DNA of 64,000 nt from Mustelus asterias (Eukaryota). Made by a program: the position numbers and the translations under genes. Below, one piece after another: positions 3,638 through 64,000 of this stretch. Each line of letters opens with the position of its first letter. The first letter of the stretch is position 1. The stretch spans positions 558,001-622,000 of the forward strand of contig NW_027590151.1 of NCBI RefSeq assembly GCF_964213995.1, given 5' to 3'. The notes beneath the pieces are model-generated. The model saw only the letters and a program-made list of their open reading frames with translations, searched no databases and was not told where the DNA came from.

Positions 3638-3665
3638 GGTTTCTGTCTGAGCAATTGTTACTGTG
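3638..3665 (+). other. 12-RSS of first J segment
   Basis: Nonamer GGTTTCTGT (3638-3646), 12-bp spacer, heptamer TACTGTG (3659-3665), directly abutting the J coding sequence. Confidence 0.92.
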
Positions 3666-3715
3666 CTACGATAAGCTAACGTTCGGCAGCGGCACCCAGG
3701 TGACAGTTGTACCAA
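3666..3715 (+). CDS. TRDJ: TCR delta J segment (YDKLTFGSGTQVTVVP)
   Basis: FGXG motif, upstream 12-RSS, and phase-1 donor A|GTGAGT at 3716 that is in frame with the C exon acceptor at 14690. Confidence 0.93.
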
Positions 3716-4806
3716 GTGAGTGTGAAGTCAGTGTTTCTTTTTCTTTCATTCCACATCTCCTCTGTGATCTAGTTTTCTGTTGTAAGTGTTCTAGTCAAGT
3801 TAGGCAGAGTGCCAATATAATATGTGGCATGCAGACGAAGAGATTGCACGGTTTTGAGTCAGTTTTGATCAAGCTAAGCTTACCCAGGCATTAGAGGGCC
3901 CTAGTATTATGGTATTGAACTGAGAAGCAGAATTGTGTCCTGTTAACGGGATAGGAAGATTCCATCCAGAGAGTTAACCCAAAAGAAAGGGGGGAGACGA
4001 GCAAGCATCATTGTTCTGTTTAAACTCCAAAATCAAATCTCTTACAGCAGAGATGGGGCCCTTCAGCCCGTCGAATCTCCACCAATAAAACGACACAAAA
4101 TCTACACTAATCCCACTTTCTGGCACTTGGCCCATAACCTTGAATGTTACAACATTTGAACTGTTCATCCACCTACTGCTTAAATATTGAGAGTTTCCTC
4201 GCCTCTGTTACCCTCCCAGGCAGTGCATTCTAGACATCCACCACACTCAGGGTCAAAAACAAATTTCTCAAATCCTCAGATCCCGCCTAAACGTCCTGCT
4301 ACTCATCTTAAAATTATATCCCTCGTTATTGACCGGTTAACTAAGGGGAACAGCTGTTCCCACTTCCAGGCAATGCATTGCATGACAGAACCAATCGGTT
4401 TGTAAAAAAGTTATTTTCTCATTTCACTTTTTCCTCTGTTGGAAATCATTTTAAATCTCTGCCCTCTCGTTCTCCATCCTTTTGCGAGAGGGAACATCTC
4501 CTCCCTCTCTACTGTAACCAGCCCCCTCGTGATTTTGAACAGCTCGAATAAATCTCCTTTTAACCTTCCCTCCAAGGGAACAGTTCCAATCTTTCCAACC
4601 TATTCTCATACCTCATAACTCATATTCTCATAACATTTCCAAGTTATTCTCAAACTGAAGTTGCTCATCCCGGCAACCGTCCTGTCAACCTTTACTTCAC
4701 TCCCTCCAACGCATTCCCATCCTTCCTATTGTATGGTTCCCAGAACTTTTCACAATATTCCAATTGAGGTTTAATTGGATGTCTTATATAAGTTCACCAT
4801 AACCTC

Positions 4807-6283
4807 TGATCTTCAGGTCGTCGTTGGCCTCTGGTATAGTACCAGAAGATTGGAGGTTAGCGAATGTTGTCCCATTGTTTAAGAAGGGGAACAGAGACTT
4901 CCCCGGGAATTATAGACCGGTGAGTCTCACTTCTGTTGTCGGCAAGATGTTGGAAAAAATTATAAGGGATAGGATTTATAGTTATTTGGAGAGTAATGAA
5001 TTGATAGGTGATAGTCAGCATGGTTTTGTGGCAGGTAGGTCGTGCCTTACTAACCTTATTGAGTTTTTTGAGAAAGTGACCAAGGAGGTGGATGGGGGCA
5101 AGGCAGTGGACGTGGTATATATGGATTTTAGTAAGGCGTTTGATAAGGTTCACCATGGTAGGCTTCTGCAGAAAATGCAGATGTATGGGATTGGGGGTGA
5201 TCTAGGAAATTGGATCAGGAATTGGCTAGCGGATAGGAAACAGAGGGTGGTGGTTGATAGTAAATATTCATCATGGAGTGCGGTTACAAGTGGTGTACCT
5301 CAGGGATCTGTTTTGGGGCCACTGCTGTTTGTAATATTTATTAATGATCTGGATGAGGGTATAGTTGGGTGGATTAGCAAATTTGCTGATGACACCAAAG
5401 TCGGTGGTGTGGTAGACAGTGAGGAAGGGTGTCGTAGTTTGCAGGAAGACTTAGACAGGTTGCAAAGTTGGGCCGAGAGGTGGCGGATGGAGTTTAATGC
5501 GGAGAAGTGTGAGGTAATTCACTTTGGTAGGAATAACAGATGTGTTGAGTATAGGGCTAACGGGAGGACTTTGAATAGTGTGGAGGAGCAGAGGGATCTA
5601 GGTGTATGTGTGCATAGATCCCTGAAAGTTGGGAATCAAGTAGATAAGGTTGTTAAGAAGGCATATGGTGTCTTGGCGTTTATTGGTAGGGGGATTGAAT
5701 TTAGGAGTCGTAGCGTTATGTTGCAACTGTACACAACTCTGGTGCGGCCGCACTTGGAGTACTGTGTGCAGTTCTGGTCCCCACATTACAGGAAGGATGT
5801 GGAGGCTTTGGAGAGGGTGCAGAGGAGGTTTACCAGGATGTTGCCTGGTATGGAGGGGAGATCCTATGAGGAGAGGCTGAGGGATTTGGGATTGTTTTCG
5901 CTGGAAAGGCGGCGGCTAAGAGGGGATCTTATTGAAACATATAAGATGATTAGAGGTTTAGATAGGGTGGATAGTGATAGCCTTTTTCCTCTGATGGAGA
6001 AATCCAGCACGAGGGGGCATGGCTTTAAATTGAGGGGGGGTAGTTATAGAACCGATGTCAGGGGTAGGTTCTTTACCCAGAGGGTGGTGAGGGATTGGAA
6101 TGCCCTGCCAGCATCAGTTGTAAATGCGCCTAGTTTGGGGGCGTTTAAGAGATCCGTAGATAGGTTCATGGACGAAAAGAAATTGGTTTAGGTTGGAGGG
6201 TCACAGTTTTTTTTTAACTGGTCGGTGCAACATCGTGGGCCGAAGGGCCTGTTCTGCGCTGTAATGTTCTATGTTCTATGTTC
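4807..6283 (+). mobile_element. Young 5'-truncated CR1 LINE with uninterrupted RT/C-terminal ORF2 (455 aa), inserted in an older minus-strand CR1 relic
   Basis: ORF 4824-6191 has no stop across the RT motifs (YRPVSL, GVPQGS, FADD) and the C-terminal domain. The 3' tail is (ATGTTCT)n. The flanks ...ATAACCTC | TTTGCTCTTGTACTC... read as one continuous antisense CR1 sequence. Confidence 0.95.
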
Positions 6284-7352
6284 TTTGCTCTTGTACTCGA
6301 TGCCTCGATCAATAAAGCCCAGAATGCTTTATTAGCCGCTCTGGCAAAAAACACATAGTGGGTCTTACAGTTACGATAGAACAACTGTACTGATAGACAA
6401 ACTGATGGCTTCGGTGGATAATTCCAACAGAAATAGGGTTCTCATAGCTGTTTAAAGAATAAAATCCTGAGGGATGGAAAGTGCCCTGATGTGCCTTTGA
6501 TGCCTCTTTCGAATGCTTTTTTAGCATTTACACTTATGAGCGTCACTGGAAAGGCGAACATTTGTTATTCATCCCTAATTGCCCTTTGAAATGAGTGACT
6601 TTCTCAGTTTTAGACGGACAGTTGCGAGCCAACTACATTGCTCTTGGTCTGGAGTCACAAGTAGAACAGGACATGTGAGATTTCCTTCCGTGAAGGACAT
6701 TAGTGATTCTGTCGAGTCCTGAAGAGAATCAACAATTGTTTCATGGTCCCATTCCTGAGACTAGATTTCAACTCCAGATTTTATTAATCAAATTGAAGTT
6801 CCACCAGATGCCATGATGGGATTTATACGCACGTAGCCAAATGTGTTGTCGTGACCTCTGTAATACTTTTTCAGTGGCATTATCATCCCGCCACTCATGG
6901 GCTTTTGAAACATTCGAGCAAAGGAACTTAAGTTTAATGGGAGAGTGGAAATAGAAACATAGGAAGTTGGAGCAGGAGTAAGCCATTCGGCCCTTCCAGC
7001 CTCCTCCACCATTCATTATGACCAAGGTTGGTCATCCAACTCAATAGCCTGTTCCTGCTTTCCCCTCATATCCTTTTATTCTTTTAGCCCAAGAGCCATA
7101 TTTAATTCTTTCTTGGAAGCATAATGCTTTGGCTTCAACTGCTTTGTAATTGTGAATTGCACGGGATTTTCATTCACTTGGTGAAAAAGAAATTCTCCTC
7201 ATGTCAGTCCCATATCCTTTGGCAATGAGCCCCGGTTCTCGATCCTGCCGCCATCCTGCATCAACGCAGATGAACCGGCTGTGGAAGCAAATCGAATTTC
7301 AAAAACCTCGTCATGAAAAACAATCCTAACATTGCTATTCATGGGGTTATGT

Positions 7353-7380
7353 CAATTTTGTACCATCTGGTATCACTATG
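7353..7380 (+). other. Non-canonical 12-RSS of second J segment
   Basis: CAATTTTGT (7353-7361), 12-bp spacer, CACTATG (7374-7380; reads CATAGTG on the opposite strand). Confidence 0.7.
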
Positions 7381-7440
7381 CACACTTTGCAATCAGAAAG
7401 CTTATCTTTGGCAGTGGAATAAAACTCACTGTCGAACCCA
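7381..7440 (+). CDS. TRDJ: TCR delta J segment (HFAIRKLIFGSGIKLTVEP)
   Basis: Read directly from the sequence (not in the ORF track): AAG CTT ATC TTT GGC AGT GGA ATA AAA CTC ACT GTC GAA CCC A|GTAAG. FGXG motif and phase-1 donor at 7441. Confidence 0.9.
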
Positions 7441-8238
7441 GTAAGCGAAGCTATTCTCTGCATTTATGTCTGGTTATAGTTTAAGAAAGTATTGTCCGAT
7501 TCTAATACACCTGTAAAGAATCTTCGTCCTGTAATAGCTGCTGTTGTATTGGTTGGGAGAGCCAGGGGGTGGGGGGGGGCGGGGGGCGGGGAGAGCGTGG
7601 GGAGGGGGGGATGGGGATGGGAAGTGGTGTGGGTTAAGGAGTGAAAAATTAAAATGTCCTCTGACAACTCTGGGTCAGAATTTACAAACAGCAGATTATT
7701 AGAATCCTACAACAATGGAGGAGACCATTAGGCCCATAGCTCTTGCTTTAGGAACAGTAGAGTCATAGTCATTGAGTTTTACAGAACAGGAAGAGGCCCT
7801 GCGGCCCATTGTGCCTGCTCCAGCCATTTAGCCCCTCTCTATTCCAGTTTCATTTTTCAGCACTTGGTTGTCGCCTTATATATTACGGCATAAATGATTT
7901 TTGGACTTGCGTGACAAGGTCCCTCTAGTCCTCTGCACTTTCTAGCATCCTCCGGTTCATTATGCATTCCCGTGCCTTGCTACTCCTCGCAAAATGCATC
8001 ACCTCACACTTTTCAGGATTAAATTCCATTTGCCACTGCTCTGCCTATCTGACCAGCCTGCCTATATGGTCCTGTAATCTCTGCAAGTCAGTGACACTTC
8101 ACTTCATACGAAAACGATGTGTGCATTCTTGGCTTGACTTCGTGTGAACTTTGTATACAGCACTCCCGAAATAATGCAAATTAAATGTTTTTCTTCTGTA
8201 CTCTGTGAGGTAAATATGATGCAACTGCTGCAATGCAA

Positions 8239-8326
8239 AATTTCTGTCTTGGAAATTGTTCCTGTACATTTACTAATTACAACACTGAGACATCCACATT
8301 CAGCGGTGAAGGTCGTGACCAGTAAG
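8239..8326 (+). pseudogene. Probable decayed J segment (pseudo-J)
   Basis: AATTTCTGT + 12-bp spacer CTTGGAAATTGT (first J spacer is CTGAGCAATTGT) + TCCTGTA, then 55 nt ending VKVVT and a phase-1 donor A|GTAAG. No FGXG motif. Confidence 0.55.
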
Positions 8327-8619
8327 GATAAGCTTACTTAATATCATTATCTGCTGTGTGATGGACAGGGAGCCAGCATCATGTGGGAAGGCAATTGAGG
8401 ACATTGCACCGATATAATGAACTTACACGGCTGAATATCCAGTTCAGCTGCTCCTAAACTTGCAGTGTCCAACCTTTGTAGATCCAATGTCATATTGTCA
8501 TATTTGTAATGTCATATTGGACTAAAAAAAACTTTATTTTTATTCCTTGGATGTGGGCATTCCTAATTTCCCACTGGACAATTTCAGGGCCCACTACATT
8601 GCTTCTTGAATCCAAAGTC

Positions 8620-8900
8620 AAAGTTCAAAGTTTATTTATTAGTCGCAAGTAAAACTTACATTAAACACTGCAATTAAGTTACTGTGAAATTCCCCTAATC
8701 GCCACAGTCCGGCGCTTGTTCGGGTCAGTGCACCTTAACCAGAACCACAATGTGGGAGGAAACCGGAGCAACCGGAGGAAACCCACGCAGACACGGGGAG
8801 AACGTGCAAACTCCAGACAGACAGTGGCCCAATTTGGGAATCGAACCCGGGTCCCTGGCGCTGTGTAGCAGAGCTAACCACTGTCCTACCACGCCGCCCC
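8620..8900 (-). mobile_element. HE1-type tRNA-derived SINE
   Basis: Reverse complement of the SINE core (GGTTAGC...GACCCGGGTTCGATTCCC...GCACGTTCTCCCCGTGTCTGCGTGGGTTTCCTCCGG) seen many times in this window. Confidence 0.8.
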
Positions 8901-9599
8901 CGCTAGCTGGCATATTTCCTTCTCCAAAGGACATTGTTGAACTAAATGCACATTTACTACCATACGCACCTCGTCTACTCTCAGCCGCCATTTTGGCAAT
9001 AGCACATTCACTTCCCTCGTCCAAGTCACTAATGTATATTGTAAACAATTGTGTCCGGAGCATTGATCCCTGTGGCACTCCATCCTGAAAATACTCCTCT
9101 TTTCCCAACTCGCTGTCTCCTATCGATTAGGCAATTCTCTATCCATGCTAATATATTACCCCGAAAAGCATAGGATCTGAAGTAATCTTTCGTCTGAGAC
9201 CATGTCCAATTTTATTTTGCTGCAATGATAAGATGCAAACCATCGAACGACAAGGCTTTCTTAACGGCAATCGACGATGGTTGCCATAGTTTTTACTAGA
9301 GGCTAGATTTCGATTAATTGAATTGAAATTACATCAAGTGCTGGGGTGGGCATTGAATTCATTTCTTTCAGGGAATTAGCCTTGGTTTCTGCGTTGCTAA
9401 TCCAATGACATCGCCACTTCGCTACCACCATCCCATAATGTTGAATGAAGACTATTTAAGGATAGTTTCAATCATAAGCATGTTACAGAGCCAGAAATCA
9501 ATTAGATTCATTTCGTTTTGTGGGCTTTATGAAATAATTAATATTCAGTGGCATTACCCAGCACTTTCCCGCACGGACATATAAAATATAGAGAAAGTT

Positions 9600-10130
9600 A
9601 GAAAATAAGAGCAGGAGTAGACCGTTCGGCCCTTCGACCCTGCTCTGCCATTCGACACGACCGTGGCTGACCCTGTAACTCGACACCATACTCGCCCTCT
9701 CCTCATAATTTTTGACACCTTAAGAGTATAGTGATATATTTCCATTTAAAATATATTCTCTGATTTCGCATCCACAAACTTCTGCGGTAGATAACTACAG
9801 TTTTACCAGCCTCTGAGTGAGGGCATTTTTCCTCATCTCAGACCTAAATATCCAACCCTGTACACTGAAACTTTGACCCCTTGTTCTAGACCCCACCAAA
9901 GGAAACACCATCCCTGCATCCAGTCTGTCCGTGCCTGCTAGAATTCTGTATATTTCAATGACACCGCCTTTCATTGTTCGAACCTCCAGTGAATACAGAT
10001 GCAGTCGCCCAATCTCCCCTAAAAGGACAATCATGCCATTCCAAGAATCATTCTGGTGTACTTTTTCTGCACTCTTTTTATTGCAAGTGTATTCTTTCTT
10101 CGATAAGGAGACCAAAACTGCCCACAATAT
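9600..10130 (-). mobile_element. CR1 3' fragment
   Basis: ORF 9795-10127 is a degraded CR1 ORF2 C-terminus (LYSLE..GGVIEIYRIL..RTRG), with the 3' tail near 9600-9650. Confidence 0.75.
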
Positions 10131-10939
10131 TAGATTTCGTCAAAAAAGGGTTGGATTTAGGAAATGTCTTAATGGAGGAAAGTGAGGCAAAATGCTTCCT
10201 GGTTTCGCTCCTGAAAGTCTTAAACATTAAACATCGTCTAAAATCCTGTTTGATTAAATCTTGGACTCCCCAACCAGCAGCAACTGTTCCTGTTTATCAA
10301 CCCTCTCCTTTTGGGTATGATTAAGTCACTCCTTAACTAAATTCCAGCGTTTTAGATTTAAACATCATTTACACTGTTAATCGAGTACTCTCAACATACA
10401 TACTGCTTACAGAGTAAAATTTCTTCTCCTGCTGCTCTATTCAAGGAATTTTTAAATGCTGACTTGTAATTTTATGAAAAACGGAACATAAATGTTGCCG
10501 GTTCTGATTGCGGACTCTTTATTTCAATCATGATCTCAGATCTTCACATTCAAACATGAATACTAAGCTTCGAATATATTTTTCGTTCTCTCAGTGTTTG
10601 TGCTTTCTGTCTTCTTCACCTGTCTAAAGAATTTGAATAAAGACATTCGTTGATCAATCCTTACTCTTAGCATATAGACATTTATAAACAACGTGGTTCT
10701 TTGATTTTCAATTCTAAATCTTACATTCAATTCTAGCTTACATTTCCCTGCACTGAAAACATCCACTAGTTTTATCCATTCACAAACTATTAATATTTCT
10801 TTGCAAATCGGTGCTTCCAGCTACGCTAATTACAATGCTGTTTTTGTGTCATTTGCAAACTAGCATATTCAGCATTCTATCACATTCTATCGCATTGTCT
10901 TAATAAATACAACTAAACTGCATATCATTCTGTATAGGT

Positions 10940-14689: not shown

Positions 14690-15001
14690 AGGCGAAAGAC
14701 CCGAAAATCCCAAAATTGAACATTTTTTACCCGCCAGTGCCACCGGGAACAACCGACATCGACACAGCTGCAGTATGCTTGGCCTCGGACTTCTCCCCCA
14801 AAACAATCAAGCTCTCCCTTTGCACGGGATCCGGCAAGGAGGCCAATGTGACAAGATCCAGTGTCCTATTGGAGAGTGGGTACTACAGGAGCTCGGGTTT
14901 TCTCTCTTTCTCCCAATCCGAGAAATCGCCAAACATCACGTGCAAGGCATTTCACGATAATCAAAATTACTCAGTAAACATCCCGCCCACAGCTGAAATT
15001 G
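14690..15001 (+). CDS. TRDC: TCR delta constant region exon 1 (Ig C1 domain)
   Basis: Acceptor TTTCCAG|AG at 14689/14690 and donor G|GTAAGT at 15001. Encodes ...AAVCLASDFSPKTI...GYYRSSGFL...ITCKAFH..., with both C-domain cysteines. Phase 1 at both ends. Confidence 0.93.
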
Positions 15002-17929: not shown

Positions 17930-17992
17930 ATGAACCTAAATGCCCTACAAGTCGAAATGATTCCTCGACAGAATCAAGTGACACGGAAAACG
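17930..17992 (+). CDS. TRDC: TCR delta constant exon 2 (hinge/connecting peptide with interchain Cys)
   Basis: Acceptor CCCTTCCAG|AT and donor G|GTATGT. 63 nt encoding (D)EPKCPTSRNDSSTESSDTEN, phase-compatible with exons 1 and 3. Confidence 0.88.
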
Positions 17993-18436: not shown

Positions 18437-18546
18437 ATCGACTGAGGGTGAACTTTTTGTCTTTGACGGTGATGGGGCTAAGACTTTTGTTTTTCAAGAG
18501 CATTGTCTTCAATGTCATGATGACGGCCAGGGTGTGGCTATTTTGA
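18437..18546 (+). CDS. TRDC: TCR delta constant exon 3 (transmembrane/cytoplasmic, stop at 18544-18546)
   Basis: Encodes (D)RLRVNFLSLTVMGLRLLFFKSIVFNVMMTARVWLF*. The TM carries the R..K pair of alpha/delta chains and the delta-type VNxxSLTVxGLR motif. The alpha connecting-peptide motif (FETDxNLN) is absent. Donor G|GTAAG lies one base after the stop, as in TRAC/TRDC genes. Confidence 0.93.
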
Positions 18547-19804
18547 GGTAAGGTCGGTCACCTGGATGCGTGCCAAGAAAGACAAACTGTGATGAACAAT
18601 GTCCATTGACGGGATCTCGCGAGGCCACTGTTAAGGCAGACGCTGAAACTAACCCGTGGAGTGAGCATTAACTTGGATGCATTTAGACAAACAAACTCTT
18701 ACTCCAGTGCCCCATCCTCATCGCTTTTCATCCCTCCCTTGCCACCGCACCACCCCCCCCCTCCCCCGCCCCCGCCCCCGCCCCCCTACTCCCGCTCCGC
18801 CCCCCTACTCCCGCTCCCAATCGCAGCCTTGACTTCTTAAACCTCTCCAGAGTTTTGTTTAATTATGCGTGTCACTGACTCGCCTAACTTTTTACTCCCA
18901 TCCCTTGGTCATGAGCTGTGTGGCTCTTTCGGAGAGTCGGTGCAGACTCTATGAGCCAAATCGCATCCTTCTGCACTGTAAGGGTTCTTGTGCACTTGCA
19001 GTGGCTTCTGAGAATATTATTGGAGAATGTTAATGGAGACCCTAAAGATACAATGTGTTCTTTGCTTGCTGACTCTTTGATGTTGCTTTGATGACTTACT
19101 GTTGCTCCTTCCATTCGAAACAGAACTGCATTGGACAATGAAATGGATTCAGGTGTGAACTCATTGACTGGGGCATCAAAATCCAGAGGCTTCCTGATCA
19201 GAAGTTCCGCTTCAAGCAATTCAATCTCGCTTGTTTTAAATGACGACTTAACTTTTAAAGATCCTCATTTCGGTAACTTTTTTCCACTGTTATTTTGATT
19301 TGAAACTCGTGGTTCTGCATGAATTCTGCTGCTTATGCTACATAAACATTTCAATTATGCAATTCAGCAACAGCGTGGAGCTAACATTTATATGGTTTCT
19401 GCCTGCATTAGTGTCGGAGACATTTTTGAAAACAGCATTTTCAATTTTAGGACATATAGAACTTCGATTTTTATATTCTTTGCTGAGAATAGTAGAATCC
19501 TATTCCAGAGAAAGCAGCCACTCAGCCCATAGTGACAATGGCAGCCCCTTTACAGGGCAATCTAGGTAATGGCACCTCACATGTTCCTTTTGGTTGTTTT
19601 ACTCTGGTAGTTATTTTAAACATTGCATTTTAATGCATGCAATTTAAGAGCGTAAGATACATTAAATCAGCAAGGATCTGACTGGATTTTCATCAAACTC
19701 GATAACTCAGTAGTTAGATTTGGATGGCGAACAGGTAAGCTGGTTTTGAAATGACCCCTACCTGATCCGCTCAGTTTTAATCAATCTCTGTGTTTCTTTC
19801 TTAG

Positions 19805-30960: not shown

Positions 30961-30967
30961 CAATATC

Positions 30968-31439: not shown

Positions 31440-33065
31440 ACACACACACACACAATCCGAGACCAACACACATACACATACACAACACATACACATACAC
31501 AACACATACACATGCACAACACATACACATGCACAACACACACACACACATACACACATTCAGAAAAACACACAAGATCTGAGACAAGCAGACACAAGCA
31601 AACTCGCAAACGCATACACACATACAGACACACACACCTCTGAAAAACACACACACACACACACAAACAGACAAATGGGCGGCACGGTAGCGCAGTGGTT
31701 AGCACTGCTGCTTCACAGCTCCAGGGACCTGGGTTCGATTCCCGGCTTGGGTCACTGTCTGTGTGGAGTCTGCACATTCTCCACGTATCTGCGTGGGTTT
31801 CCTCCGGGTGCTCCGGTTTCCTCCCACAGTCCAAAGATATGCGGGTTAGATTAATTGGCCATGCTAAAAATTGCCCCTTAGTGTCCTGAGATGCGTCGGT
31901 TAGAGGGATTAGTGGGTAAATATGTAGGGATGTGGGGGTAGGGCCTGGGTGGGATTGTGATCGGTGCAGACTCGATGGGCCGAATGGCCTCTTTCTGTAC
32001 TGAAGGGTTTCTATGATTTCTATGAAACAGTCACGAGCACACACACACACAGAAACACACACACAGGATCTCACAAAAACCGATACAGGCAAACTCGCAC
32101 ACACAGGCCCATACACGGATATACTCGCTCAGACAAACACACGCACGCACCCACAGGTACACACGCACACACATACTTTCTCTCTCTTTCAGACACACAG
32201 ACACACTGTCAGACAAATACATGCACACACACACAGACAACCACACAGATACAAACACACACACGCATTTAGACAAGGACAGAAAACATACACGCAAACA
32301 CACAGGCAAATGCAGGCACACGTATTTCTTAGACGGACAGACACAGGACAACTCGCAAACACAGAGACACTCTCAGAAAAACACAGGCACACAGTCACAG
32401 ACAAAGATACAATCACAAGAACACACTCAGACAAACACACACAAGCAAACTCTTGCACACAGCCATATACAGAGAAAAATTCAGACAAAGAAAACATACA
32501 CTCTCAGACATGCATGCACACACACAGTCACACTCGCTGGCAAATATACACACACAGACCCACACACAGCTGTACTATCAAACGAACACACAGGCACACA
32601 CATACAAATTCACTCTGATGCAAACACACAGATACACACAATCTCTCAGACAAAACACACACACTTAGAGACAAACACATAAGCACTCAGTCAAACACTC
32701 AGACATACATACAATCACAGAAAAACATATAGGCACAAACACCCAGGCAAACACAGTCACGCACACAGAAACACACGCACACAGTCCAACATAGGCACAC
32801 ATATGATCTCAGTCAAGCAACATAGGCAAGGTTGTAAACTCACAGACACACACTTTCAGCATAATACACACACATACACACACATGAACAAACAAGTAAA
32901 CAGACACAAGCACACGCACAGACACACACACACACACAGACTCAGGCAAAAACAGTCACGATCTGAGAGAAATAGACACAAGCAAAGTCGCACATACGGA
33001 CACATACTAATAAATACTCAGACAAAAGCAAACACACACACACTCTCAGATAAACACAGAGACAA
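31440..33065. repeat. Degenerate (CA)-rich tract with a nested HE1-type SINE (31677-32025, +)
   Basis: CA-rich sequence is directly visible. The SINE begins GGGCGGCACGGTAGCGCAGTGG at 31677 and ends CTATGATTTCTATGA. Confidence 0.9.
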
Positions 33066-34830: not shown

Positions 34831-35469
34831 GATCACTGATAACATCAAAGGACAGTGGCTGAATGACATAATCTCCAAGGTTCAAACCCGAAAAAAAGAA
34901 ATAAGACGGTAGTGGGTTTAAATTTGTGATTCAAACCATGCTTGCGAACAGAGAGAAAATGTGCGACATGTTTTGTCCACAATTCCCAGTCTGGTGAGGT
35001 GACTGCGAGTAAATGGAAGAACACTGAACTGGGATACAATTAATGTCCTTATCGGGGCAAGGTGTCCTTTGGTGTTATTCACATCAGAAGAAAATCCTGA
35101 TCTAGTTATGGTAAGGCAGAGATTCTGGCCCGTAAAAGGTGTCAGGAAACAACAAAGCTCTAAAATTACGCTCGAAATGACAGTGGCATTGTGGGGAAAT
35201 TCAGTAATATTCGCAAAAAAGCATTCACACACTCGCTGTGTGCCGACTGTGATCAAATGGATCGAGAAACGGAAAGGGGAGATGGGAAAGGGCTGGCCAA
35301 TAATTGATACAGTCTAGGAAATAACACCAAAGACAAAATGTCAGCTGACGCACCACCAACTCACTTTGGTGAGTGCCTTCGCTCGGAATTATAATCCATT
35401 TCTGTTACTCTCACTGTTTTACGGGTGAGCGCGCCCTCTGCTGATCACTAACTGGAACTATCAGTGCGG

Positions 35470-35747
35470 TGCTTTTGTCCGGGATCCGCTCTAACTCTGC
35501 AGCAGAAACACAATCGGAGAGAAGCGTCCTGGTGACATTTGAGGAACAGTGTTCCCTTGTACAATGTAGGCAATATTTTTCCACATCCTCCGCGCTATAA
35601 ATCCTCATTAAATACCTCGGAGTTTGGCTGGGATACAGGAACAGAGTAGGGAGAGTAGCTGTCGAGTATTTACAATCCAGCATTATGCTCTGTGCTTGGA
35701 GAATCCTTAATTCAGATTGATCATTGGACACAGAATCATCACTATTT
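35470..35747 (-). pseudogene. TCR alpha/delta V pseudogene (same family as the V at 54.2 kb)
   Basis: Acceptor TTGTTGCAG, then NSDDSVSNDQSELRILQAQSIMLDCKYSTATLPTLFLYPSQTPRYLM. The conserved Trp is lost, FR3 has deletions and the heptamer is deleted. A spacer and nonamer remnant ACAAAAGCA remains at 35478-35470. Confidence 0.85.
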
Positions 35748-50694: not shown

Positions 50695-51675
50695 CTTATT
50701 GAAATTATTCATTTAGTATGAGGGAAGTTTTCCATGGTTTCAGTTGTTGCTGAACATTATCCGAATCTCGATGTTGTAACCATGTTATCTTTGCTCTGAC
50801 CTCGGCCACAAATGCTCTCAGCAACAGCAGAAATGCTGTATTTTAAGACGCAATGAGGAAATAAATGTTTGTACTTTGACACCGTGCGCACATTAGCAAC
50901 TTGTTCAGTCCATAACATAATATAATGGATTTATAAATGCAGACTAACATAGTTAATCATCATCTGAAACATGTGTAATAGTAGTGTGTGCTCATAAAGA
51001 CACAAGTGAAACTAACTGAACTGGAGGAAATGGCGCACATTTCCCGGAAGCATATTTTTAAAATTGTTCTTCATAATAAAGAAATGGGAAAAAAATCACT
51101 CAGGCAGATGAGTAAATCGAAACTCAGTGTAGATCTGCTGGACTTTTCTATAGATGAACGGGAGCTCGGCGCCAGAATGTTTCACATGCAGAATAAAGAG
51201 GGATCAAGTATAACTAGCAAATCATTATTAAATCTTTTCCCTTTAAAGATATTTGATATTGTTTAAAAGCTGACTGTCTCAAATAAGCACCATGGGATGT
51301 GTATTAACCAGTGACTCGATTTCTTTTATTGGTCAGTCATGTTTGCAATTCAATGTTGCATATTCCCGAGATATTCAACTCAGAATGAAGATGTATGTAT
51401 TAAATACATGTATTCATATTTAATATCGAATATCAAAACAAATATTGAGTAACTAGCCAACGATTCAAGTCTGGATGACCCTTCGTCAGAGCTAAGAGCA
51501 AAGAAAAGCAGAAAAGATTTAAATTATGAGGGTGGAAGGGGGATGCTGTAATTGGACAAAGGGAATGCAAATAACGATAAAAGATGGCTGAGAGAGATAC
51601 TAAAAATGTCCATTAAGCGATCAGAATAGCAGAGCAGAGGTAAAGGTGGTTAAGGCAGTTGCCCTGAAAGAGAAG

Positions 51676-53952: not shown

Positions 53953-54489
53953 ATGTGCTCCTCATTTTGGTTGCTGATAATAATGGTCTTGCGGCCCGGT
54001 GAGTCAATAAGCTCTGACAAAATGTCATCCTGACACGAAACGTTACCTCTGTTCTCCCTCTCACACATGTCAGATCTGCTGAAGATTTCCAGCATTTACT
54101 TTGAGCCAATGTTTAAATGATCAGCGTCTGTCCCATGGACTATGTTCGCTCCCAGATTTTGAAGAACATCTGTGTTTTATTACAGGGACAAATGCTGAAG
54201 ATTCAGTGTTTCAAGATCGATCTGAATTATCGATTCTGGAAGGACAGAACATAACACTGGGCTGTAAATACTCAACAGCTGCTCTTCGAGCCCTGTTCTG
54301 GTACATCCTGTATCCCGGGCAAGCTCCAAGGCAGCTGATGAATATTTTTAGCTCGGGCGATACCGATAAGCCTCCGGATATCCCAGATAGGTTCTCGGCT
54401 GCTTTACAGAAAGGAAACAACACTGTTCCTTTAAATATCGCCAGCACTCTTCTGTCTGGCACCGCCGTGTATTTCTGTGCCATGGAGCA
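53953..54489 (+). CDS. Apparently intact TCR alpha/delta V gene (leader 53953-53998, V exon 54186-54489)
   Basis: Leader MCSSFWLLIIMVLRP|GTGAGT. V exon GTNAEDSVFQ...LGCKYS...LFWYILYPGQAPRQL...LSGTAVYFCAME. The conserved Asp of DxAxY is replaced by Gly. Confidence 0.9.
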
Positions 54490-54568
54490 CACACTGGTTC
54501 AGAGATATAGCGAAACACGTACAGAAACTCCAGACTGGGAGTTCTAGTTAGTGGACGGCAGAGGGCGC
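54490..54568 (+). other. RSS with 24-bp spacer followed by CTCF-like motif
   Basis: CACACTG (54490-54496) + 24 bp + ACAGAAACT (54521-54529), then ACGGCAGAGGGCGC at 54555-54568. Confidence 0.8.
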
Positions 54569-55401: not shown

Positions 55402-55535
55402 ATCTGAGTCATGGAAATTCTGTCACTTAGTTACTGTCCTCAAATGATAAGACAGAAGGAGAAGTGTTTTTTTTAAGTTTCACCTATGATATTACATGGA
55501 GTGATTTTGTTTTATTCTGGCATTGTCTACTCCCG
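55402..55535 (+). pseudogene. Truncated V relic, paralogue of the V at 41972
   Basis: TTTCAG|ATCTGAGTCATGGAAATTCTGTCACTTAG aligns with TTTCAG|ATCTGAGCCATGGAGATTCTGTTACTCAG. It has a premature TAG, the first Cys is lost, and similarity ends shortly after TTATTCTGG. Confidence 0.8.
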
Positions 55536-55699
55536 ATGAGCTGCACTTACAGGAAGTCTTAATCATGTCTGCGGACAAGCGGTGAGACAAACAAAAGCAA
55601 CAGCACCGTTCAGGCATCCAAACCTCTCTCAATTTCAATGTGTAGGAAATGGACTCTGAAGAGTTGACCAGAAGAAGGGCTCACGTATGGAGTTTATGA

Positions 55700-56379: not shown

Positions 56380-56692
56380 AGAATCCCTACCGTGCAGAAG
56401 GAGGCCATTCGGCCCATCGATTCTGCACCGGCAACAATCCCACCCAGGCCCTATCCCCTGAACTCCATGCATTTACCCTGGCTAGTCCTCCTGACACTAA
56501 GAGGCAATTTATCATGGCAAATCCACCCAACCCGCACATCTTTGGACTGTGGGAGGAAACCGGAGCACTCAGAGTAAACCCACGCAGACACGGGGAGAAC
56601 ATGCACACTCCACACAGACAGTGAGCCAATGCCGGAATTGAACCCGGGTCCCTGGCGCTGTGAGGCATCAGTGATAATCATTGTGCCACCAT
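56380..56692 (-). mobile_element. HE1-type SINE
   Basis: Reverse complement of the full SINE core. Confidence 0.85.
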
Positions 56693-56754
56693 TTGGCCCA
56701 TAAAAAATTGAAATCATGCAGACTTCCCGCAACCTAACTGAGAACGTTTAATAA

Positions 56755-56822
56755 TGTAGCTGCCCGGTTTCGAACCGGGGACCTTTCGCGTGTGAAGCGA
56801 ATGTGATGACAATTACAGAAAC
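56755..56822 (-). pseudogene. tRNA-Val(CAC) pseudogene
   Basis: GTTTCTGTAATTGTCATCACATTCGCTTCACACGCGAAAGGTCCCCGGTTCGAAACCGGGCAGCTACA has an intact T-arm/B-box, a 5-nt D-arm deletion and a broken acceptor stem. Confidence 0.85.
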
Positions 56823-56862
56823 TGTGAACAACAGAGAGCTTGAACTACCGTCAAGTTTACAT

Positions 56863-56935
56863 CGAGCCAGGCAGAAATCGAACTTGAAACCTTCTGAACA
56901 ATAATCAGACGCGTTGTGCATTGAGCGACTCACCG
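56863..56935 (-). pseudogene. tRNA-Arg(ACG)-derived pseudogene
   Basis: CGGTGAGTCGCTCAATGCACAACGCGTCTGATTATTGTTCAGAAGGTTTCAAGTTCGATTTCTGCCTGGCTCG aligns without gaps to vertebrate tRNA-Arg(ACG) as recalled (GGGCCAGTGGCGCAATGGATAACGCGTCTGACTACGGATCAGAAG...CTGGCTCG). The anticodon is mutated. Confidence 0.75.
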
Positions 56936-57113
56936 ACATGAACGCAGGACCTCCCTGCTTCTGATTAGATCTTTATTCTGCAACCTCAGAGCTGGATATT
57001 CACATCAGCTTCGGGAGAGATGTTTCTGATCAGCTGTTAATTCCCATCAACTCAGGGCTGAATATTCAGATCAGCTCCAGGAGAAATGTTTCTGACCCTC
57101 AGACCAGACCCAC

Positions 57114-57620
57114 TGACGTCACTCGCACTACATAGTGACGTCACATGGGCTATAGGTGACGTCACACATTCTGACGCCACACATTCCGCATTCTGACGTC
57201 TGACGTTGGGCGGCACGGTGCCACAGTGGTTAGCACAGCTGCCTCACAGCGCCAGGGACACGGGTTCGATTCCAGCCTCGGGTCACTGTCTGTCTGGAGT
57301 TTGGATGTTCTCCCCGTGTCTGCGCGGGTTTCCTCCGGGTGCTGTGGTTTCCTCTCACAGTCCAAAGATGTGCGGGTTAGGTTGACTAGCCATGTTGAAT
57401 TGCCTCCTCATGTCAGGGGGATTCGCGGGGTAAAGATGTGAGGTTACAGGGAGAGGGCCTGGGTGGGACTGTGGTCGGTGCGGGTTCAATGGGCCGAATG
57501 GTCTCCTTCTGCACTGTAAACATTCTATGATTCTATGAGTTTCCAATGCCACGGATGCTCTGACGTCAGAATGCCGGATGTTCTGACGTCACAATACCGG
57601 ATGCTCTGTCGCATGCGCAC
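57114..57620. promoter_or_regulatory. CRE (TGACGTCA) array upstream of a V gene, split by an HE1-type SINE (57208-57540, +)
   Basis: Perfect TGACGTCA at 57114, 57136, 57157, 57561 and 57584, with near-matches at 57172, 57194 and 57201. Confidence 0.65.
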
Positions 57621-57819
57621 TCTCCTCCCCCGCACTATCAATTCTGAAGCTCCTTCACTGATTCACTTTGTGATCACAAGTCCCAGCGACCCGGCTCTCA
57701 CCGCCACTCTGTGACTGGTTTGGGGTTCGGTTTGATATCCAATAGCGTTGCTTTCCCAGGAGCTTCTCTCAGCCTGGGATCTGCTGACAGCTGTTTCACA
57801 CAAGCCGATAGGATCCAAC

Positions 57820-58322
57820 ATGTTTCTGACCTTCACTTTGGTGATTATTTTCCTGGATTTATTACTGTTTCCTCAGTGTAAGTGTGGTCACTATTTCTGA
57901 CAGGAATATTTCACACCTCAGCAATGTTAGGCTCTGTTAAATTGTACTCAGCTTTATTATATCATCTCGAATTGTGAATACAATTGTACTTTATTGTGCT
58001 ACATTATAGTACGATATGTTCTTACTGCAAATGTACATATTCTTCCCAGATGCCGCTGGCAGTGAAGAGCTATCACAGTCTCCGGAGTCAGTGGTTGTTA
58101 CCGAGGAAGCCACTGCATCGTTGAACTGTTCAACCACAGTAGCTGGAGAGGTCCTTCAATGGTACAGACAAAATCTAGACAGAACCGTGCAGCACCTGGT
58201 GACCGGTACCAGCGATCAGGGCAGGATCACGGCTCGGCATACTTTCTCAGAGAACCACAGCGTTCTGAATGTTCGTGAAGCTCGGCTGACAGACACCGCC
58301 ACCTATTTCTGTGCAATGGAGG
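57820..58322 (+). CDS. Intact TCR alpha/delta V gene with short CDR2 region (leader 57820-57877, V exon 58050-58322)
   Basis: Leader MFLTFTLVIIFLDLLLFPQ|GTAAGT. V exon ..SEELSQSPESVVVTEEATASLNCSTTVAGEVLQWYRQNLDRTVQHLVTGTSDQGRITARHTFSENHSVLNVREARLTDTATYFCAME. Confidence 0.93.
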
Positions 58323-58361
58323 CACAATGTAGCAAAGACCGTACAGGGCCGTACAAAAACC
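58323..58361 (+). other. 23-RSS
   Basis: CACAATG + 23 bp + ACAAAAACC. Confidence 0.93.
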
Positions 58362-59920
58362 TGCCGCGATCATCCAGAAAGTGGAGCCTGTGCAGAGAGC
58401 TGGGCTTTTAATCACTCTCTCCCTTGGATACGCGCCACAGTCACCCGATCAGTGAGATCTGTTGCCGATTTGGGTTTATTCTTTAAAATCAAAACAGAAC
58501 GGATAAAATACATTTAAATTGGGTTATTTTCTGTGGAAATGTCATCCGGGCAGCGCATGTTCCATGGTGCTTCCAAATTGGAATAATCGTGGTATTCGGT
58601 GAGTCAATATTAAAAGGATCCTTGTCTATTTCCTGTGATAAATCCCATTCCAGTCTGTGACACATTCTAAGTTCGGCTGCAGGGACGAGTGACAGACATT
58701 GAGTTTCCCAGACTCCATCGGAGTTGAACGCTCTGAAAGACCAGTCAGGAGTGCTAAGGGACAGTCACTCCATATCTGAAAGCTTTCTGTACCTATCTAG
58801 ACAGAGCAGTATTCCGGGTAAGTTATGGGATATTTAATGAAGTGGTAGAGGGCCAGACATTGAGATAGGTCCCAAGGTCTCTCGGACCGGTTCGCTGTTG
58901 ACTTGAACGAACAAAGACAGCAATGCACCTGTTCGATAAATAAACGACCAAGTCATCCCATTTTCACAGAAAAGTGGACAGGGATCGATAAATGTTATTC
59001 ATTGCACTGCCACTTGTTACCATCTGGAGTAGAGCGCCACAAACTATAAAGGAAGAGCATTCAATAGTAAATTTCAAAAAGGCATTGCCAGACCTTGAGA
59101 ACGGAAAACAACTCGTGGAATGCGGGGTGAGAAGAGCAATTGGGAAAGATCTTTCATTGAGCCACAGGGAGAGTCAATTGTTTCTGATCCATTCGCGCCC
59201 GTCCGTCACTATTTTTTCTCAGTCACTTGAGCAGTCAGCAGATGCAGGCTAGTCACAGACTGCTGCAGGTTCAGCCGCCGCTATTTCCTCTCCATCACCT
59301 GCGACTGCCGCTGAGAACTCCGCACTTCCATCAGCTTTGAGTCTGCGGTGACCCCGGCCACAGTTTCCGGTTGCTGCTTTTCATTCTAACACCATTGTGC
59401 TTTTCGAGACATTGCTGCCGCTGGTCGATTTCTGTCATTGGTTAGATCAGAAGTTCAGTGCTTCAGTCTATTCATTAGTGTAGCAAGTAAGCTTATATAA
59501 ACACTGCAGTGAAGTTACTGTGGAAATCCCCTCGTTGCCACACTCCGGCGCCTGTTCGGGTCCACTGAGGGAGAGTTTAGCATGGCTGATTAGCGACTGA
59601 TTCAGGAAGTGGTGCGTGGTACTGTCGGATAATACAGCCTTTTTAACGAGGTGAGTCTGTGTTGAAATTATTATTGAGCAATCCAAGTATTCATAACTAC
59701 AGCAGACTTTGACACATCCAATGTTTGGTTCTAGGAATTGCTGGCGCAATCTCAGTTAACGGCCCTGGAAGATGATATAACAGTAATTTTTGGCTACATG
59801 ATCTCTACATCTGGGAGCTTGCATTACCGCTGCTCTGAAGTAGATTTGGAGGTTAACTGCATGCATTGCGCCATAAAGATATGTCTCATGATTTCGCAAT
59901 CTGTTCCTCTGGTGACCTAG

Positions 59921-60245
59921 ACAAGATGTGGAGATGCCGGCGTTGGACTGGGGTAAACACAGTAAGAAGTCTAACAACACCAGGTTAAAGTTCAACAGGT
60001 TTATTTGGTAGCAAAAACCACGAGCTTTCGGAGCGCTGCCCCTTCGTCAGGTGGGTGGGAGTTCTGATCACAAACAGTGCACAAAGACACAAACTCAATT
60101 TACATGAATAATGATTGGAATGTGAGTCTTTACAGCTAATCAAGTCTTAAAGGTACAGACAATGTGAGTGGAGGGAGCATTAAGCACAGGTTAAACAGAT
60201 GTGTATTGTCTCCAGACAGGACAGTTAGTGAGATTTTGCACAGGT
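59921..60245. mobile_element. Interspersed repeat end, probably Penelope-like
   Basis: AACACCAGGTTAAAG..CAACAGGTTTATTTGGTAGC..GAGCTTTCGGAGCGCTGC recurs in reverse at ~33335-33395 and ~40872-40948. Family assignment is from memory only. Confidence 0.5.
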
Positions 60246-61257
60246 TTTGCCACACTCTCTGACAGAGATTTTGCATCGAGAGACAGAGGGAGAGTGTGTG
60301 CGTGTGTCCTTGTGTGTGAGAGAGTTCAAAGTAACCTTCAAATACCTGGACTCCGCAATCTCTTTACTCCAGGATCAGTGTGGCAACCCTGTCTGACAGA
60401 GAATTAAACATTCCCACTGTATTCTGTGTTAATAAAGTTTCTAACATCACCACAGCACGACACTGGAAATGAGCTTCCTTGGGTTAGAAAGTGCTTTTGG
60501 ACATCGGAAGTCTGTAAAAGGCATCAATAAAAATCTTTACTGCTGTTTTCGACTGAAATTTATTTCTGGAGATTAAATTCATTGTCTTCATATTTCCACG
60601 GCCAGAAAAGTTTATTTTTAATTTCATTTTTTAAATTTAAATCCGTTTCTTTCCCGGATTGGGTTAATGAGTGGCCACCACTTCCTAGGATTTCCCGGAT
60701 TCTGTCTCCAGTCGGTTCAGATATTCTTTCCGCTCCAGAGGACACAGGCAGTCTGGCAGGAATAAGAATCCGGGAACTTACCGAGGGGACAGTGCCGTGC
60801 TCAGGGAACGCTGCACCTTCAGAGCTGCCAGCCACTCGGTGACCTGTTCAATCGGGGGCACCGTGTTCCCTCTCAGTTGGAGGTGACACATCACATGGTC
60901 ACTGTTTCCAAGAAGAGCAGAGAAATGTCCTGTTTGATATCTGTTCACCAATCACAATTACTGAAACAGAGAGAACACTACAATATTACTGAATGAAATG
61001 TCACACTGAGTCCAAATTGGCTGCTGTGTTTTCCACAGTGACAGGGAAACACTTTGGGACATCAAACTGTACAAATAGTGAAATGTTCATTCCCTAAGCT
61101 GCCCCCATTGTTTTAGTTTGGTAATATATTTATTATTAATACATATATATATTAGAATTAAAAGTTTGAGATAACAACACGATTTCAGGTTCCAGATCAG
61201 ACTCACTCTGATCACAATGTTTGCCTAACGCTCTGTTGTGTTGAGTGAGGCTTTGGC

Positions 61258-61296
61258 AGTTTTTGTGCAGGTTCAGCCCAGCTCTGTGTCTCTGTG
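61258..61296 (-). other. 23-RSS
   Basis: CACAGAG (61296-61290) + 23 bp + ACAAAAACT (61266-61258). Confidence 0.92.
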
Positions 61297-62147
61297 GGAC
61301 TCAGTGCGCAGTAATAAACCCCGGAGTCTGTCAGCTCTGTTTTAGACACTTTCAGCGGGACTGTGCGGGTTGTATCATTGAGTTCCGCTGAAAAACGGTC
61401 CCCTTTGGATCTCCCTGTGTTCCCGGTGTATTTATTTGTGTGCAGAAGATACTTCATGGATCCGCTGGGATACTGACGGTACCAGAATAGATAAAGGTCG
61501 CTGCTTGTACTTGTGTAATTACAGAGCAACCTAACATCATCTCCTTCAGTGACGGTGACTGCAGCCGCTGTCTGTGAAACAGAATCTCCTCGGGAATGTC
61601 CTGGAAAAGTCCAAAGAAATATTAAATTAAACATTGTGACTTGACTCCGTTTCCCCCAGAATTCGCCCGTTATCGGCAAAAATAATCTGAGAGAGAAGGT
61701 TCAGCGGCTGGATTGGGAAGTTTTTGTGGCGATTCAATAAAACTTCCACGATAAACATTGTTCTTTCTAACGAGATCAGTTCCTCGACTTCGGTCCCTGT
61801 AACTGGAAACTGCTCACGGTCTGTTTGAAGTGTGATGTTTGCCAAAGTGATTCACTGGTATCAGGGGAGCTGGAATCTGAGCCCAACTCATTCTCTATCA
61901 ATCCCTGGGGGAAATGTGCCCAATCCCAACAGTGTCCAGTGATGAGACCAGCGAAATCCGGATAACTTTTCGATGTTGAGATCAATCCGTTCCCTCATCA
62001 CCGACCCCCTCCCCCTCGCATTGAAGGAACTGCCTGACAGAATATAGTGTGTGGTAATGATGTGTAACACAGACTTGAGCAACTTGTGAAATTACCGGTT
62101 AACAGAGCTGCCGCTGTGAGGAATAAATACCGAGTAACAGGAGACAT
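61297..62147 (-). CDS. Intact TCR alpha/delta V gene (leader 62096-62147, V exon 61297-61600)
   Basis: Leader MSPVTRYLFLTAAALLT|GTAATT. V exon GHSRGDSVSQTAAAVTVTEGDDVRLLCNYTSTSSDLYLFWYRQYPSGSMKYLL...DSGVYYCALS. Confidence 0.93.
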
Positions 62148-63429
62148 GTTTGCAGAGAGCTCGCGGCGGATCTGACCAGAGCGGGTGGGAGATGTCATTG
62201 TTTCAGTTAAGAGTTGAAAGAGGCGGAGTCATATCCAGGCCCCTGTGGATTGGTTCACTGCTGGAAACATCATCAGATGACATCCAATCGGCTTCAAGCT
62301 CCTTTGTTCTTCAGTTCACCCAATGATCTCACAGCTCCTTTATCTCCAATTCACCCCATAGGCGGAGAGACGGAAGGAACAAAGTGAAGTTGGCCATCCC
62401 ACGGCAGGGGATTATTTTCCTCTTCAACAGTTATTTCATGAACCGACCGGTCCCCTGAGTGTTGATGGGTCTGTTCTGACATGGAGAATGACAATGTTCA
62501 TCCCTACAGCAACATGTCAAGCAGTTTGTTATCGATCATGTTTGGGACAGCAGCTACAGTGCGGGGGAGGATGAATTTTTAGTTGAAACATGTACTTCAC
62601 AAGAAGTGGTAGAATAATGAAGAGTCTGTGATATTTCCATACGATCTTCCCTCAATTTGTAACTTTGCCGCCTGTGAAATCCTCTTTCAGAGTGGAAGTA
62701 TAGCTTGCCACGCCATTGGACTGCTGATCCAATCGGTGCCAAACAGGGAAAAGCAGCAAAGGTCAATATCTACAATAAAATCTCTAATAAAACAACACAG
62801 ATGAGGCAGGTCAAAGTGAGAACCACACAGGAAAGCTGTGGGTGTGGCTGCCATAGGCAGTGTGGTGAGATGTAGAATTTATCTGCAAGGAATTGAACTC
62901 AATAACACTATCACATTGGAAATCATATAAATTTGCCTGTCTGTAGGAGCGGCAGCTGAATGTTCATTCCATACCGCGGACCAACAGTCTCGCACCAGGA
63001 AGGTCAGGGTTAGTAAATGATCCAATACAAAGCGGGATCTTCATCAGTGATGTAGATGGAAAGTGGGACCGAATAGCTGAGTAGCTGGATTGGAGAGGTT
63101 CTCAATGAATGTACGAGGTAACAGAAAAAGCTTTAAATGTTTACGTTAAAGGTTGGGGAAGGGAAAGGGACACAATTTCCATAAATCAGCAGACAAGGAC
63201 AGTCTGGGACAAATAGGCAGGGAAAGGCATCGAAAACCAAAGAGAAGGCGTTGATGTATCTCAGATCGATTTGTCAATCTTAATTCAATTGCACATGTCA
63301 GTTACGATCATTGACAAATATAGCTGCAATGGGACCACACCAGTTGCTGTTTTTGAGTGTTGTCATTTGTTGCAATGTTAAGAGTTTTCGACACTCTGTG
63401 GAAACTGTATTACCTGCGATAATGTGTGA

Positions 63430-63502
63430 GCGCACCCTGCTGGGCACTAACTGGAAGTCTGGGGTTTTTGCACGGCATTCACTATATCTCTGCAGCAGTG
63501 TG
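63430..63502 (-). other. RSS with 24-bp spacer followed by CTCF-like motif
   Basis: CACACTG (63502-63496) + 24 bp + GCAAAAACC (63471-63463), then CCAGCAGGGTGCGC at 63443-63430. Confidence 0.8.
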
Positions 63503-63806
63503 GGCTTCGTGGCACAGAAGTACACGGCGCTGTCGTAGATCAGTGTGTTACTGATCGTTAGTTCGGTAATCGTGTTCTTTTTATTAAATTTGGAAGAAAA
63601 CCGATCATTGAGGTCGGTGTTCCTTTGCACGTTCTCACCTATAAGCTGAAACATGTACACTGGAGCTTTCCCGGGCTGCTGACTGTACCAGTACACATGA
63701 GGGCTGGAATCGCTTGTTTTCAAGGTACAGGTTAGTGTGACATTACTTTCCTCTTTAACCGATATTTCAGGATCCATTTGTTCCACTTTGTCTTGGAGGG
63801 TCCATT
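63503..63806 (-). CDS. TCR alpha/delta V exon, open frame (leader not seen, presumably beyond the window end)
   Basis: Acceptor TTTCTGTTAG, then WTLQDKVEQMDPEISVKEESNVTLTCTLKTSDSSPHVYWYSQQPGKAPVYMF...DSAVYFCATK. Confidence 0.9.
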
Positions 63807-64000
63807 CTAACAGAAACAACAGCAATAATGACAATCAGAGTCAGCCTCATATTACCGATTGCAAGCGTTTATGTCGCTGATGTAAATCACCATTTAAAGT
63901 CAACAAGGCTGGATGTAATTGTTGAGCTCTGATGAAGGGTCATCCAGACTCGAAATGTCGGCTCTATTGTCTCCACAGATGCTGTCAGACCGGCTGAGAT

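Follow-up and report, generated by a model that had tools for sequence, protein, structure and literature searches.

Which variable (V) segments can a shark T-cell receptor (TCR) delta constant gene use when it lies among V segments of both orientations and no J-alpha segment follows it? The question is raised by a stretch of 64,000 nucleotides from Mustelus asterias (assembly GCF_964213995.1, contig NW_027590151.1, here C119, positions 558001-622000), which we call the window. Window position 1 is C119:558001, and feature coordinates are those of the window unless prefixed C119. An earlier note on this DNA had taken its C-delta gene to belong to a single rearranged translocon; we find instead that it is one of 19 copies. 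In the reading that we consider probable, the window C-delta is part of one of 19 intact units, none of which lies beside J-alpha. It belongs to a NAR-TCR cluster in which a V segment is already fused to the diversity (D) segment D-delta, likely through germ-cell RAG activity, and which is predicted to be a self-contained gene for a three-domain delta chain.

The immunoglobulin (Ig) exon of C-delta has 19 matches in the genome assembly among 41 candidates scored, and the transmembrane (TM) exon recovers the same 19 plus two of C-alpha type among 21 candidates, both match counts being lower bounds. A second C-delta, sought beyond the window, thus proved to be 18 further copies. In the 24-50 kb that we read around all 19 copies, every unit has joining (J) segments and three C exons, and the spliced C frames are open in 19 of 19, encoding 15 distinct proteins. 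The TM exon is nearly invariant across units, and the introns differ by up to 15%. At an identity cut of 98.5% the J-C cores form 10 groups, with differences of up to 15%. A single 20-Mb scaffold (C71) carries three of the copies. The closest copy, on C96, is colinear with C119 for only about 70 kb and is therefore a paralog rather than an allele. On these sequence comparisons the haploid number of C-delta genes is placed between 10 and 19, with 10 as the floor.

The units also share a plan. Each holds several V types and several J segments (4-9). A free D with 12/23 recombination signal sequences (RSS) is found in 11 units and a V-D join in 6 of the 18 readable ones; the unit on C138 is odd, and that on C3311 is cut at the contig end. 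In all 11 units with a free D, a NAR-TCR cassette lies 40-55 kb upstream of C, and Ig-like V segments lie between cassette and D in all five units read unbroken.

The constant gene of the window consists of an Ig exon (14690-15001), a connecting-peptide exon (17930-17992) and a TM/cytoplasmic exon (18437-18547, stop at 18544-18546), all on the plus strand. It is identified as C-delta because (i) its Ig exon reads CLASDFSP, which fits the trd signature CLXXXFXP given in PMC10322711, the two C-alpha genes of the same genome reading CLATDYFP and CLVTDYFP (tra signature CLXTD); (ii) its three exons together are 58% identical to a protein from catshark that agrees in name and in its Ig-like V with the entry 'IgWVTCRD' in table S1 of PMC12227049; and (iii) its Ig exon is only about 31% identical to the C-alpha Ig exon of its own genome.

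Upstream of it, the unit extends leftward beyond the window, which opens in a J-J intron (1..3637, plus strand). The best preserved J-delta of the unit lies at 3666-3715 (plus strand), with a 12-RSS at 3638-3665, an FGSG motif and a GT donor at 3716. A further J-delta at 7381-7440 (plus strand; 7353..7440 with its 12-RSS) has an open frame and a donor at 7441. Its RSS heptamer is CATAGTG, with CAT rather than CAC, where other groups have CACAGTG, and by this heptamer the segment is likely weak or unused. A conserved element near 8290 (8230..8345, plus strand) is kept in all six paralogs checked and has FGXG in no frame; it is probably the segment that the earlier note had listed as a psi-J.

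The remainder of the gene lies to the left of the window, on the plus strand throughout. A leader at C119:549856 precedes a NAR-TCR V (C119:550055-550318) that ends in a 22/23-RSS with a 22-base spacer; a NAR D with RSS of 12/12 type follows at C119:550728, and a NAR J, again with a 22/23-RSS (22-base spacer), at about C119:551120-551175. The signals of this V, D and J are therefore 12/23-compatible, and the cassette is intact. As judged from protein P0003 and the genomic exons, the V carries a leader and an a-b loop cysteine and lacks the tryptophan of the WYRK position. The supporting V-delta (C119:553349-553672) has a cysteine in complementarity-determining region 1, and its exon starts at a splice acceptor 2.2 kb past the NAR J; no leader was noted on it, the leader search having covered the NAR leader only. 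Six J-delta segments or relics follow at C119:553.98-557.4 kb. Usable-looking J segments in the unit are J1 and the J at 3666, the rest being marked by a stop, by loss of the donor or by a weak RSS. These features are those outlined for NAR-TCR, the doubly rearranging TCR-delta of sharks (PMC1845163, PMC3457774, PMC6795676): a leader, a NAR-type V of the kind just described, to which a D and a J of its own belong, and after these a supporting V-delta whose CDR1 contains a cysteine, J-delta and C-delta. Unlike in those accounts, nearly every C-delta copy here has its own cassette, and the supporting V of the window unit is pre-fused to D. The window unit contains no free D-delta, and its second domain does not have the full somatic V-D-J assembly of NAR-TCR. 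A three-domain chain, which in NAR-TCR is expressed and paired with gamma, is predicted from the genes.

The fusion itself can be read base by base. Elsewhere, free supporting V segments end in their own 23-RSS in 15 of the 16 fetched, the sixteenth (C122) being joined to an inverted NAR D. In the window unit the supporting V has lost its last base and is followed by two extra bases, the last six bases of D-delta (C119:553675-553680) and the 23-RSS of D, the same 3' signal that follows the free D in other units. A trimmed V, added bases, a D remnant and the RSS of D together have the shape of a RAG coding joint, and this pattern suggests that RAG likely made the fusion in germ cells. When C119 is aligned to C110 and C111, the alignment jumps by about 26 kb at the V-D junction, the length lost in the fusion. 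Three places in the genome (on C119, C96 and C436) have this 25-base junction, in copies 96-98.6% alike; a join common to diverged paralogs predates their duplication and is therefore germline. This supports germline status for 3 of the 6 V-D joins. A short-read contig from run X1, possibly the sample behind the assembly, spans the junction with 2 differences at a depth of 70, like that of neighbouring contigs; no contig over the junction is listed for the low-depth runs X3 and X4, which is neutral either way. Within C119:549.5-559 kb, sequence to the left of the junction is about 96% alike to C110/C111 and sequence to the right of it 84-89%. The V-D join may have linked a cassette to the D-J-C of a different cluster, or the cassette may have been homogenised later.

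If C-delta occupies so many places, the place that it does not occupy becomes of interest. The genome has two C-alpha genes, 75% alike, on C71 and C546, each present once in the assembly. The J-alpha RSS pattern has 28 of its 29 matches on these two scaffolds and none on C119, so that J-alpha, which the earlier note had expected further right on the scaffold, lies elsewhere. On C71 (18.37-18.43 Mb) 40 J matches precede C-alpha, and the 159 gapless kb upstream of this J cluster contain no C-delta and no V; the nearest C-delta on C71 is 6.1 Mb from J-alpha, and the three C71 copies lie 6-11 Mb off TRA. On C546 the J-alpha cluster gives 148 J matches; upstream of it lie V segments and two relics of D-delta in which the 3' RSS spacer is shortened, and no C-delta. 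A C-delta hidden in an assembly gap on C546 was considered and is unlikely, since the flanks match gapless C71 in order. The order trdc-(traj)n-trac described as canonical (PMC10322711) is thus absent: no J follows C in any of the 7 units examined downstream, and no C-delta lies upstream of either J-alpha cluster. C-delta appears, on this comparison of loci, to have been lost from its ancestral seat at J-alpha. The DNA ahead of the J cluster on C71 is filled with zinc-finger motifs, as is that to the right of the repeat on C119 described below.

To the right of C-delta the window contains nine V segments or relics, four on the plus and five on the minus strand. A profile hidden Markov model (HMM) trained on 28 V proteins from the same genome finds eight V-like places with scores of 20-90 bits, the maximum in five shuffled windows being 6.1; nucleotide BLAST recovers the same eight, and an extra 34-base match (E 4e-4) was left uncounted. 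The earlier note had counted at least 10, five on each strand; its minus-strand count was right, and HMM, BLAST and tblastn put the plus-strand count at four and the total at nine. RSS-like matches at 32523 and 50544 were tried as a tenth V and dropped, the former lying in a CA-rich repeat and the latter beside a tRNA gene, a tRNA-Val(AAC) gene that lies within the V array at 50622-50695.

Three of these V segments are intact with a 23-RSS. They are an alpha/delta V at 41971..42314 (plus strand; RSS at 42276, with the leader exon some 0.7 kb further upstream), a V with leader at 58022..58361 (plus strand; RSS at 58323) and a V at 61258..61613 (minus strand; RSS at 61296). The last, one of five minus-strand V segments, is the sole one of them able in principle to reach J-delta by inversion. 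The other minus-strand members are a truncated relic without RSS at 35430..35741, found by HMM and BLAST; a pseudogene at 43667..44018 with a stop and a lost heptamer; a pseudogene at 45049..45394 with a frameshift and an intact 23-RSS at 45087; and a V with an open frame at 63463..63804, likely a pseudogene, whose RSS has a 24-base spacer and whose leader (to 63850) abuts the V exon out of frame with no intron. On the plus strand, a V with an open frame at 54176..54529 has an RSS with a 24-base spacer and 3 mismatches, and a weak relic at 55404..55535 was found by tblastn only (E 0.001).

No J segment accompanies this array. A J-delta library from the 19 units, searched against C119:458-722 kb, matches seven places, all at or left of window position 7451, and none after it through window position 164000, more than 140 kb past C-delta. 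A scan for RSS plus donor over 18.6-64 kb gives five weak matches with 5 mismatches each, none of them with FGXG, and the RSS and FGXG scan yielded no J-alpha between 20 and 64 kb. The layout seen in the earlier note, two J segments and an intact C-delta followed by a mixed-polarity V field without a J, therefore stands in the segment, J-library and RSS-plus-donor scans, and so does its placing of C-delta inside the V field. Its further point, that joining of V to J-alpha cannot be relied on to delete C-delta, also holds.

The mixed polarity of the V segments results from a large inverted repeat around the unit. Its right arm is at 32056..86666 (C119:590056-644666) and its left arm at C119:498450-548163; each is roughly 50 kb long, and identity between the arms is 84-94% towards the centre, rising to 97-99.5% farther out. 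The 42-kb spacer between them is the NAR-TCR-J-C-delta unit. The V segments of the window belong to the right arm, and their left-arm twins are mostly broken. The C-then-V order and the inner part of the repeat are also present on C96 and C436, and four more units (three on C71 and that on C110, 50 kb each) have related downstream DNA with V segments on both strands and no J. In all, V segments and no J lie downstream of C-delta in 7 of 7 units examined.

Based on these observations, we propose the following history and mode of assembly. An ancestral block comprising a NAR-TCR cassette, Ig-like V segments, D, J segments and C-delta would once have stood just upstream of J-alpha. A basking shark gene model has the same segment order ahead of C-delta, and it agrees with the orders listed for catshark and stingray in table S1 of PMC12227049 (one TCRD followed by TCRA, with Ig-like V segments before TCRD), for which reason the copied block is likely ancestral. 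The V field would have received many copies of it, each a segment of 60-85 kb, and at J-alpha itself C-delta would have dropped out, leaving broken D relics. In a thymocyte, the NAR V of the window unit would be joined to D and then to the NAR J (23/12, 12/23). A separate 23/12 join would link the ready-made V-D to one of the J-delta segments, J1 and the J at 3666 being the likeliest. Splicing of leader, NAR VDJ, supporting VDJ and C-delta would then give a three-domain delta chain whose supporting domain has little junctional diversity, as in TCR-mu. Since the window unit has no free D, a V recruited from the array could join J only directly, and under the 12/23 rule array V segments would enter by such a D-less V-J join alone. 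For the minus-strand V at 61.3 kb this would proceed by inversion; for the plus-strand V segments to the right of C-delta, the join would excise J-C-delta as a circle. With at least 10 C-delta genes per haploid genome, alpha/delta exclusion would depend on regulated access to clusters and not on deletion.

Several observations weigh against the reading of the window unit as one of many intact, self-contained clusters. Most of its J segments look impaired by their sequence (a stop, lost donors, the CAT heptamer), which fits decay. Pairs of units 99.2-99.8% alike are possible unpurged haplotypes, so that 19 may overstate the haploid count, and Logan contig depths are not copy numbers. The other joins (on C850, C401, C71 and C122) each have one sighting, next to an unjoined copy of 99% identity, and are possibly somatic. 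The assembly gives a distance to J-alpha for the three units on C71, the other 16 lying on different scaffolds, and on C546 a 200-N gap separates the D relics from J-alpha, with flanks that nevertheless follow the order of gapless C71. Finally, run X5 (organism B) shows a single C-delta sequence type. Some of these points lead towards another explanation, in which genuine copies were carried along as passengers when a field rich in repeats and zinc-finger motifs underwent segmental duplication, with only one or two clusters in use and the window unit silent or decaying. Many J segments and most flanking V segments of the window unit are broken, the copies are young and patchy in identity, and C119 differs from 15 distant same-length copies at 22-25 amino-acid-changing versus 3-7 silent codons, with no sign of purifying selection. 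Against this, the C frames are open in every unit with connecting-peptide and TM splice sites intact, the TM exon is nearly invariant despite introns up to 15% apart, the NAR cassette of the window unit is undamaged, and the lack of a C-delta at J-alpha means that gamma-delta cells must use some dispersed unit. We therefore regard passenger status as unlikely.

It is very unlikely that the pattern is an assembly artefact in which unpurged haplotypes and mis-joins inflate the number of C-delta genes and detach them from J-alpha, the inverted repeat being a false join. Most units do lie on unplaced scaffolds of 0.03-2.6 Mb, and some pairs are more than 99% alike. Yet the ten groups are more than 1.5% and up to 15% apart, three copies share one scaffold, and each C-alpha gene is single, without a near-identical twin, which argues against general haplotype duplication. 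Several C variants are present in the short reads, and the repeat arms, at 84-99.5%, are not identical. A misassembly between C-delta and the V array, the doubt named in the earlier note, is itself improbable, because the order of C followed by V and the inner part of the repeat are seen again on further scaffolds, at 88-97% identity; C119:458-722 kb contains no N. The model of the earlier note, a single translocon with a D-J-C-delta unit at the edge of a V array that recruits minus-strand V segments by inversion and has J-alpha further right, draws on the absence of J after C and on the intact minus-strand V with its 23-RSS at 61.3 kb. It can hardly hold for a scaffold with no C-alpha and no J-alpha RSS pattern, in a genome with 18 further C-delta copies, and for a unit with no free D. 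The reading of the window unit as one of many dispersed NAR-TCR clusters thus remains the probable one.

How does such an arrangement compare with known systems? Shark TCR loci are described as translocons and shark Ig genes as miniclusters, some of them VD-J (PMC6795676); TCR alpha/delta is likewise called a translocon in PMC12227049, and nurse shark TCR-delta appears under single-copy genes in table 2 of PMC1513397. The M. asterias genome resembles the shark TCR alpha/delta locus as outlined in these sources in its mixed-polarity V segments spread over megabases and in the Ig-like V segments just upstream of D-J-C-delta. It differs in that one TCRD beside TCRA is replaced by 19 C-delta genes and two C-alpha loci, none adjacent. 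As in shark Ig miniclusters (PMC2193156, PMC6795676), cassettes are repeated with a C each, and some contain germline VD joins with trimming and added bases; unlike the miniclusters described there, with one V and one J, these are TCR genes with several V types and 4-9 J segments per cluster. In the Ig miniclusters, rearrangement stays mostly inside one cluster. A germline-joined NAR-TCR V is also marked in the great white row of table S1 of PMC12227049.

Outside sharks, the closest likeness is to TCR-mu of marsupials and monotremes (PMC7615758), with its tandem clusters of V-D-J, supporting V and C and its three-domain delta-derived chain. In that account the supporting V is germline-joined in marsupials and D-less in platypus, with low diversity. 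TCR-mu has its own VH-related V segments, a fully joined V-J exon and a separate locus, whereas the window unit has a NAR V, a V-D that still needs a J, and a shark C-delta; the likeness is convergent and the window unit is no member of TCR-mu. As described for the newt (PMC12698447), TRD lies away from TRA, TRA is duplicated and a TRD V is germline-joined, but the newt has 1-2 TRD clusters on another chromosome, compared with 10-19 here, three of them on the TRA scaffold at 6-11 Mb. With the germline-rearranged TCR of catfish (PMC6170632), other groups thus already provide examples of TCR genes joined in the germline and of TRD loci that are duplicated or detached; the comparison with print also took in PMC5931798, PMC3964593 and PMC11372145. 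A literature search over titles and abstract openings, with four central shark TCR-delta papers outside its coverage, returned no report of many shark C-delta clusters and leaves novelty unsettled.

In the usual contrast, shark Ig genes form clusters and TCR genes translocons, delta being so linked to alpha that joining at alpha deletes it. This genome would break both halves of that contrast and present a translocon turning into clusters within sharks, an independent parallel to steps proposed for TCR-mu. A cluster layout would change the view of how shark gamma-delta receptors are assembled. Letters specific to single copies make testable which delta cluster a T cell chooses, how alpha and delta are kept exclusive without deletion, and how often germ-cell RAG edits TCR genes. 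A wider proposal is that houndsharks and some relatives have turned TCR-delta from one translocon gene into 10-19 working Ig-style miniclusters that stand apart from TCR-alpha, every one with a C-delta isotype and a NAR-TCR cassette to itself; that germ-cell RAG keeps fixing joins in them, yielding a dedicated NAR-TCR gene convergent with TCR-mu; and that the choice between the alpha-beta and gamma-delta lineages, like allelic exclusion of delta, proceeds without deletion, possibly aided by downstream plus-strand V segments whose joining excises C-delta. We put this forward tentatively, as a possibility falling somewhat short of probable.

Several C-delta variants are seen in short-read contigs of X1 and also of X14 and X21, from two other organisms (the X5 organism being a third), a hint from contig sequences that C-delta amplification may extend beyond one species. 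In the protein collection, a word-limited search found a single C-delta for each of four further sharks and a pair on one contig from Heptranchias. The two Heptranchias proteins (P0013 and P0016) group together, and one is of NAR-TCR type; by sequence, this pair is likely an independent duplication. The C-delta protein tree, in which 10 of 18 inner branches are open, was used for the Heptranchias pairing alone.

Other units show joined or hybrid forms as well. About 21-20 kb upstream of C-delta on C138, a VH-type V that is intact and retains its RSS is followed after 0.4 kb by a 27-base D. The 3' portion of this D is identical to D-delta; its 5' portion, which we take to be of Ig heavy-chain origin, differs, as does its RSS. 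This looks like a fixed fusion of an Ig D and D-delta in a putative Ig V/TCR-delta hybrid cluster. The C122 supporting V joined to an inverted NAR D (C122:392-394 kb) has its NAR V and leader flipped; the V proteins equal those of C71c, and the join is of inversional RAG type, germline or somatic. Three further distinct V-D-delta joins are found on C850, C401 and C71b (C71:11.02 Mb), two of these V segments carrying stops. At C110:84-87 kb a NAR cassette has V and D pre-joined, and the NAR cassettes of C173 and C90 have D and J pre-joined by loss of the inner RSS pair.

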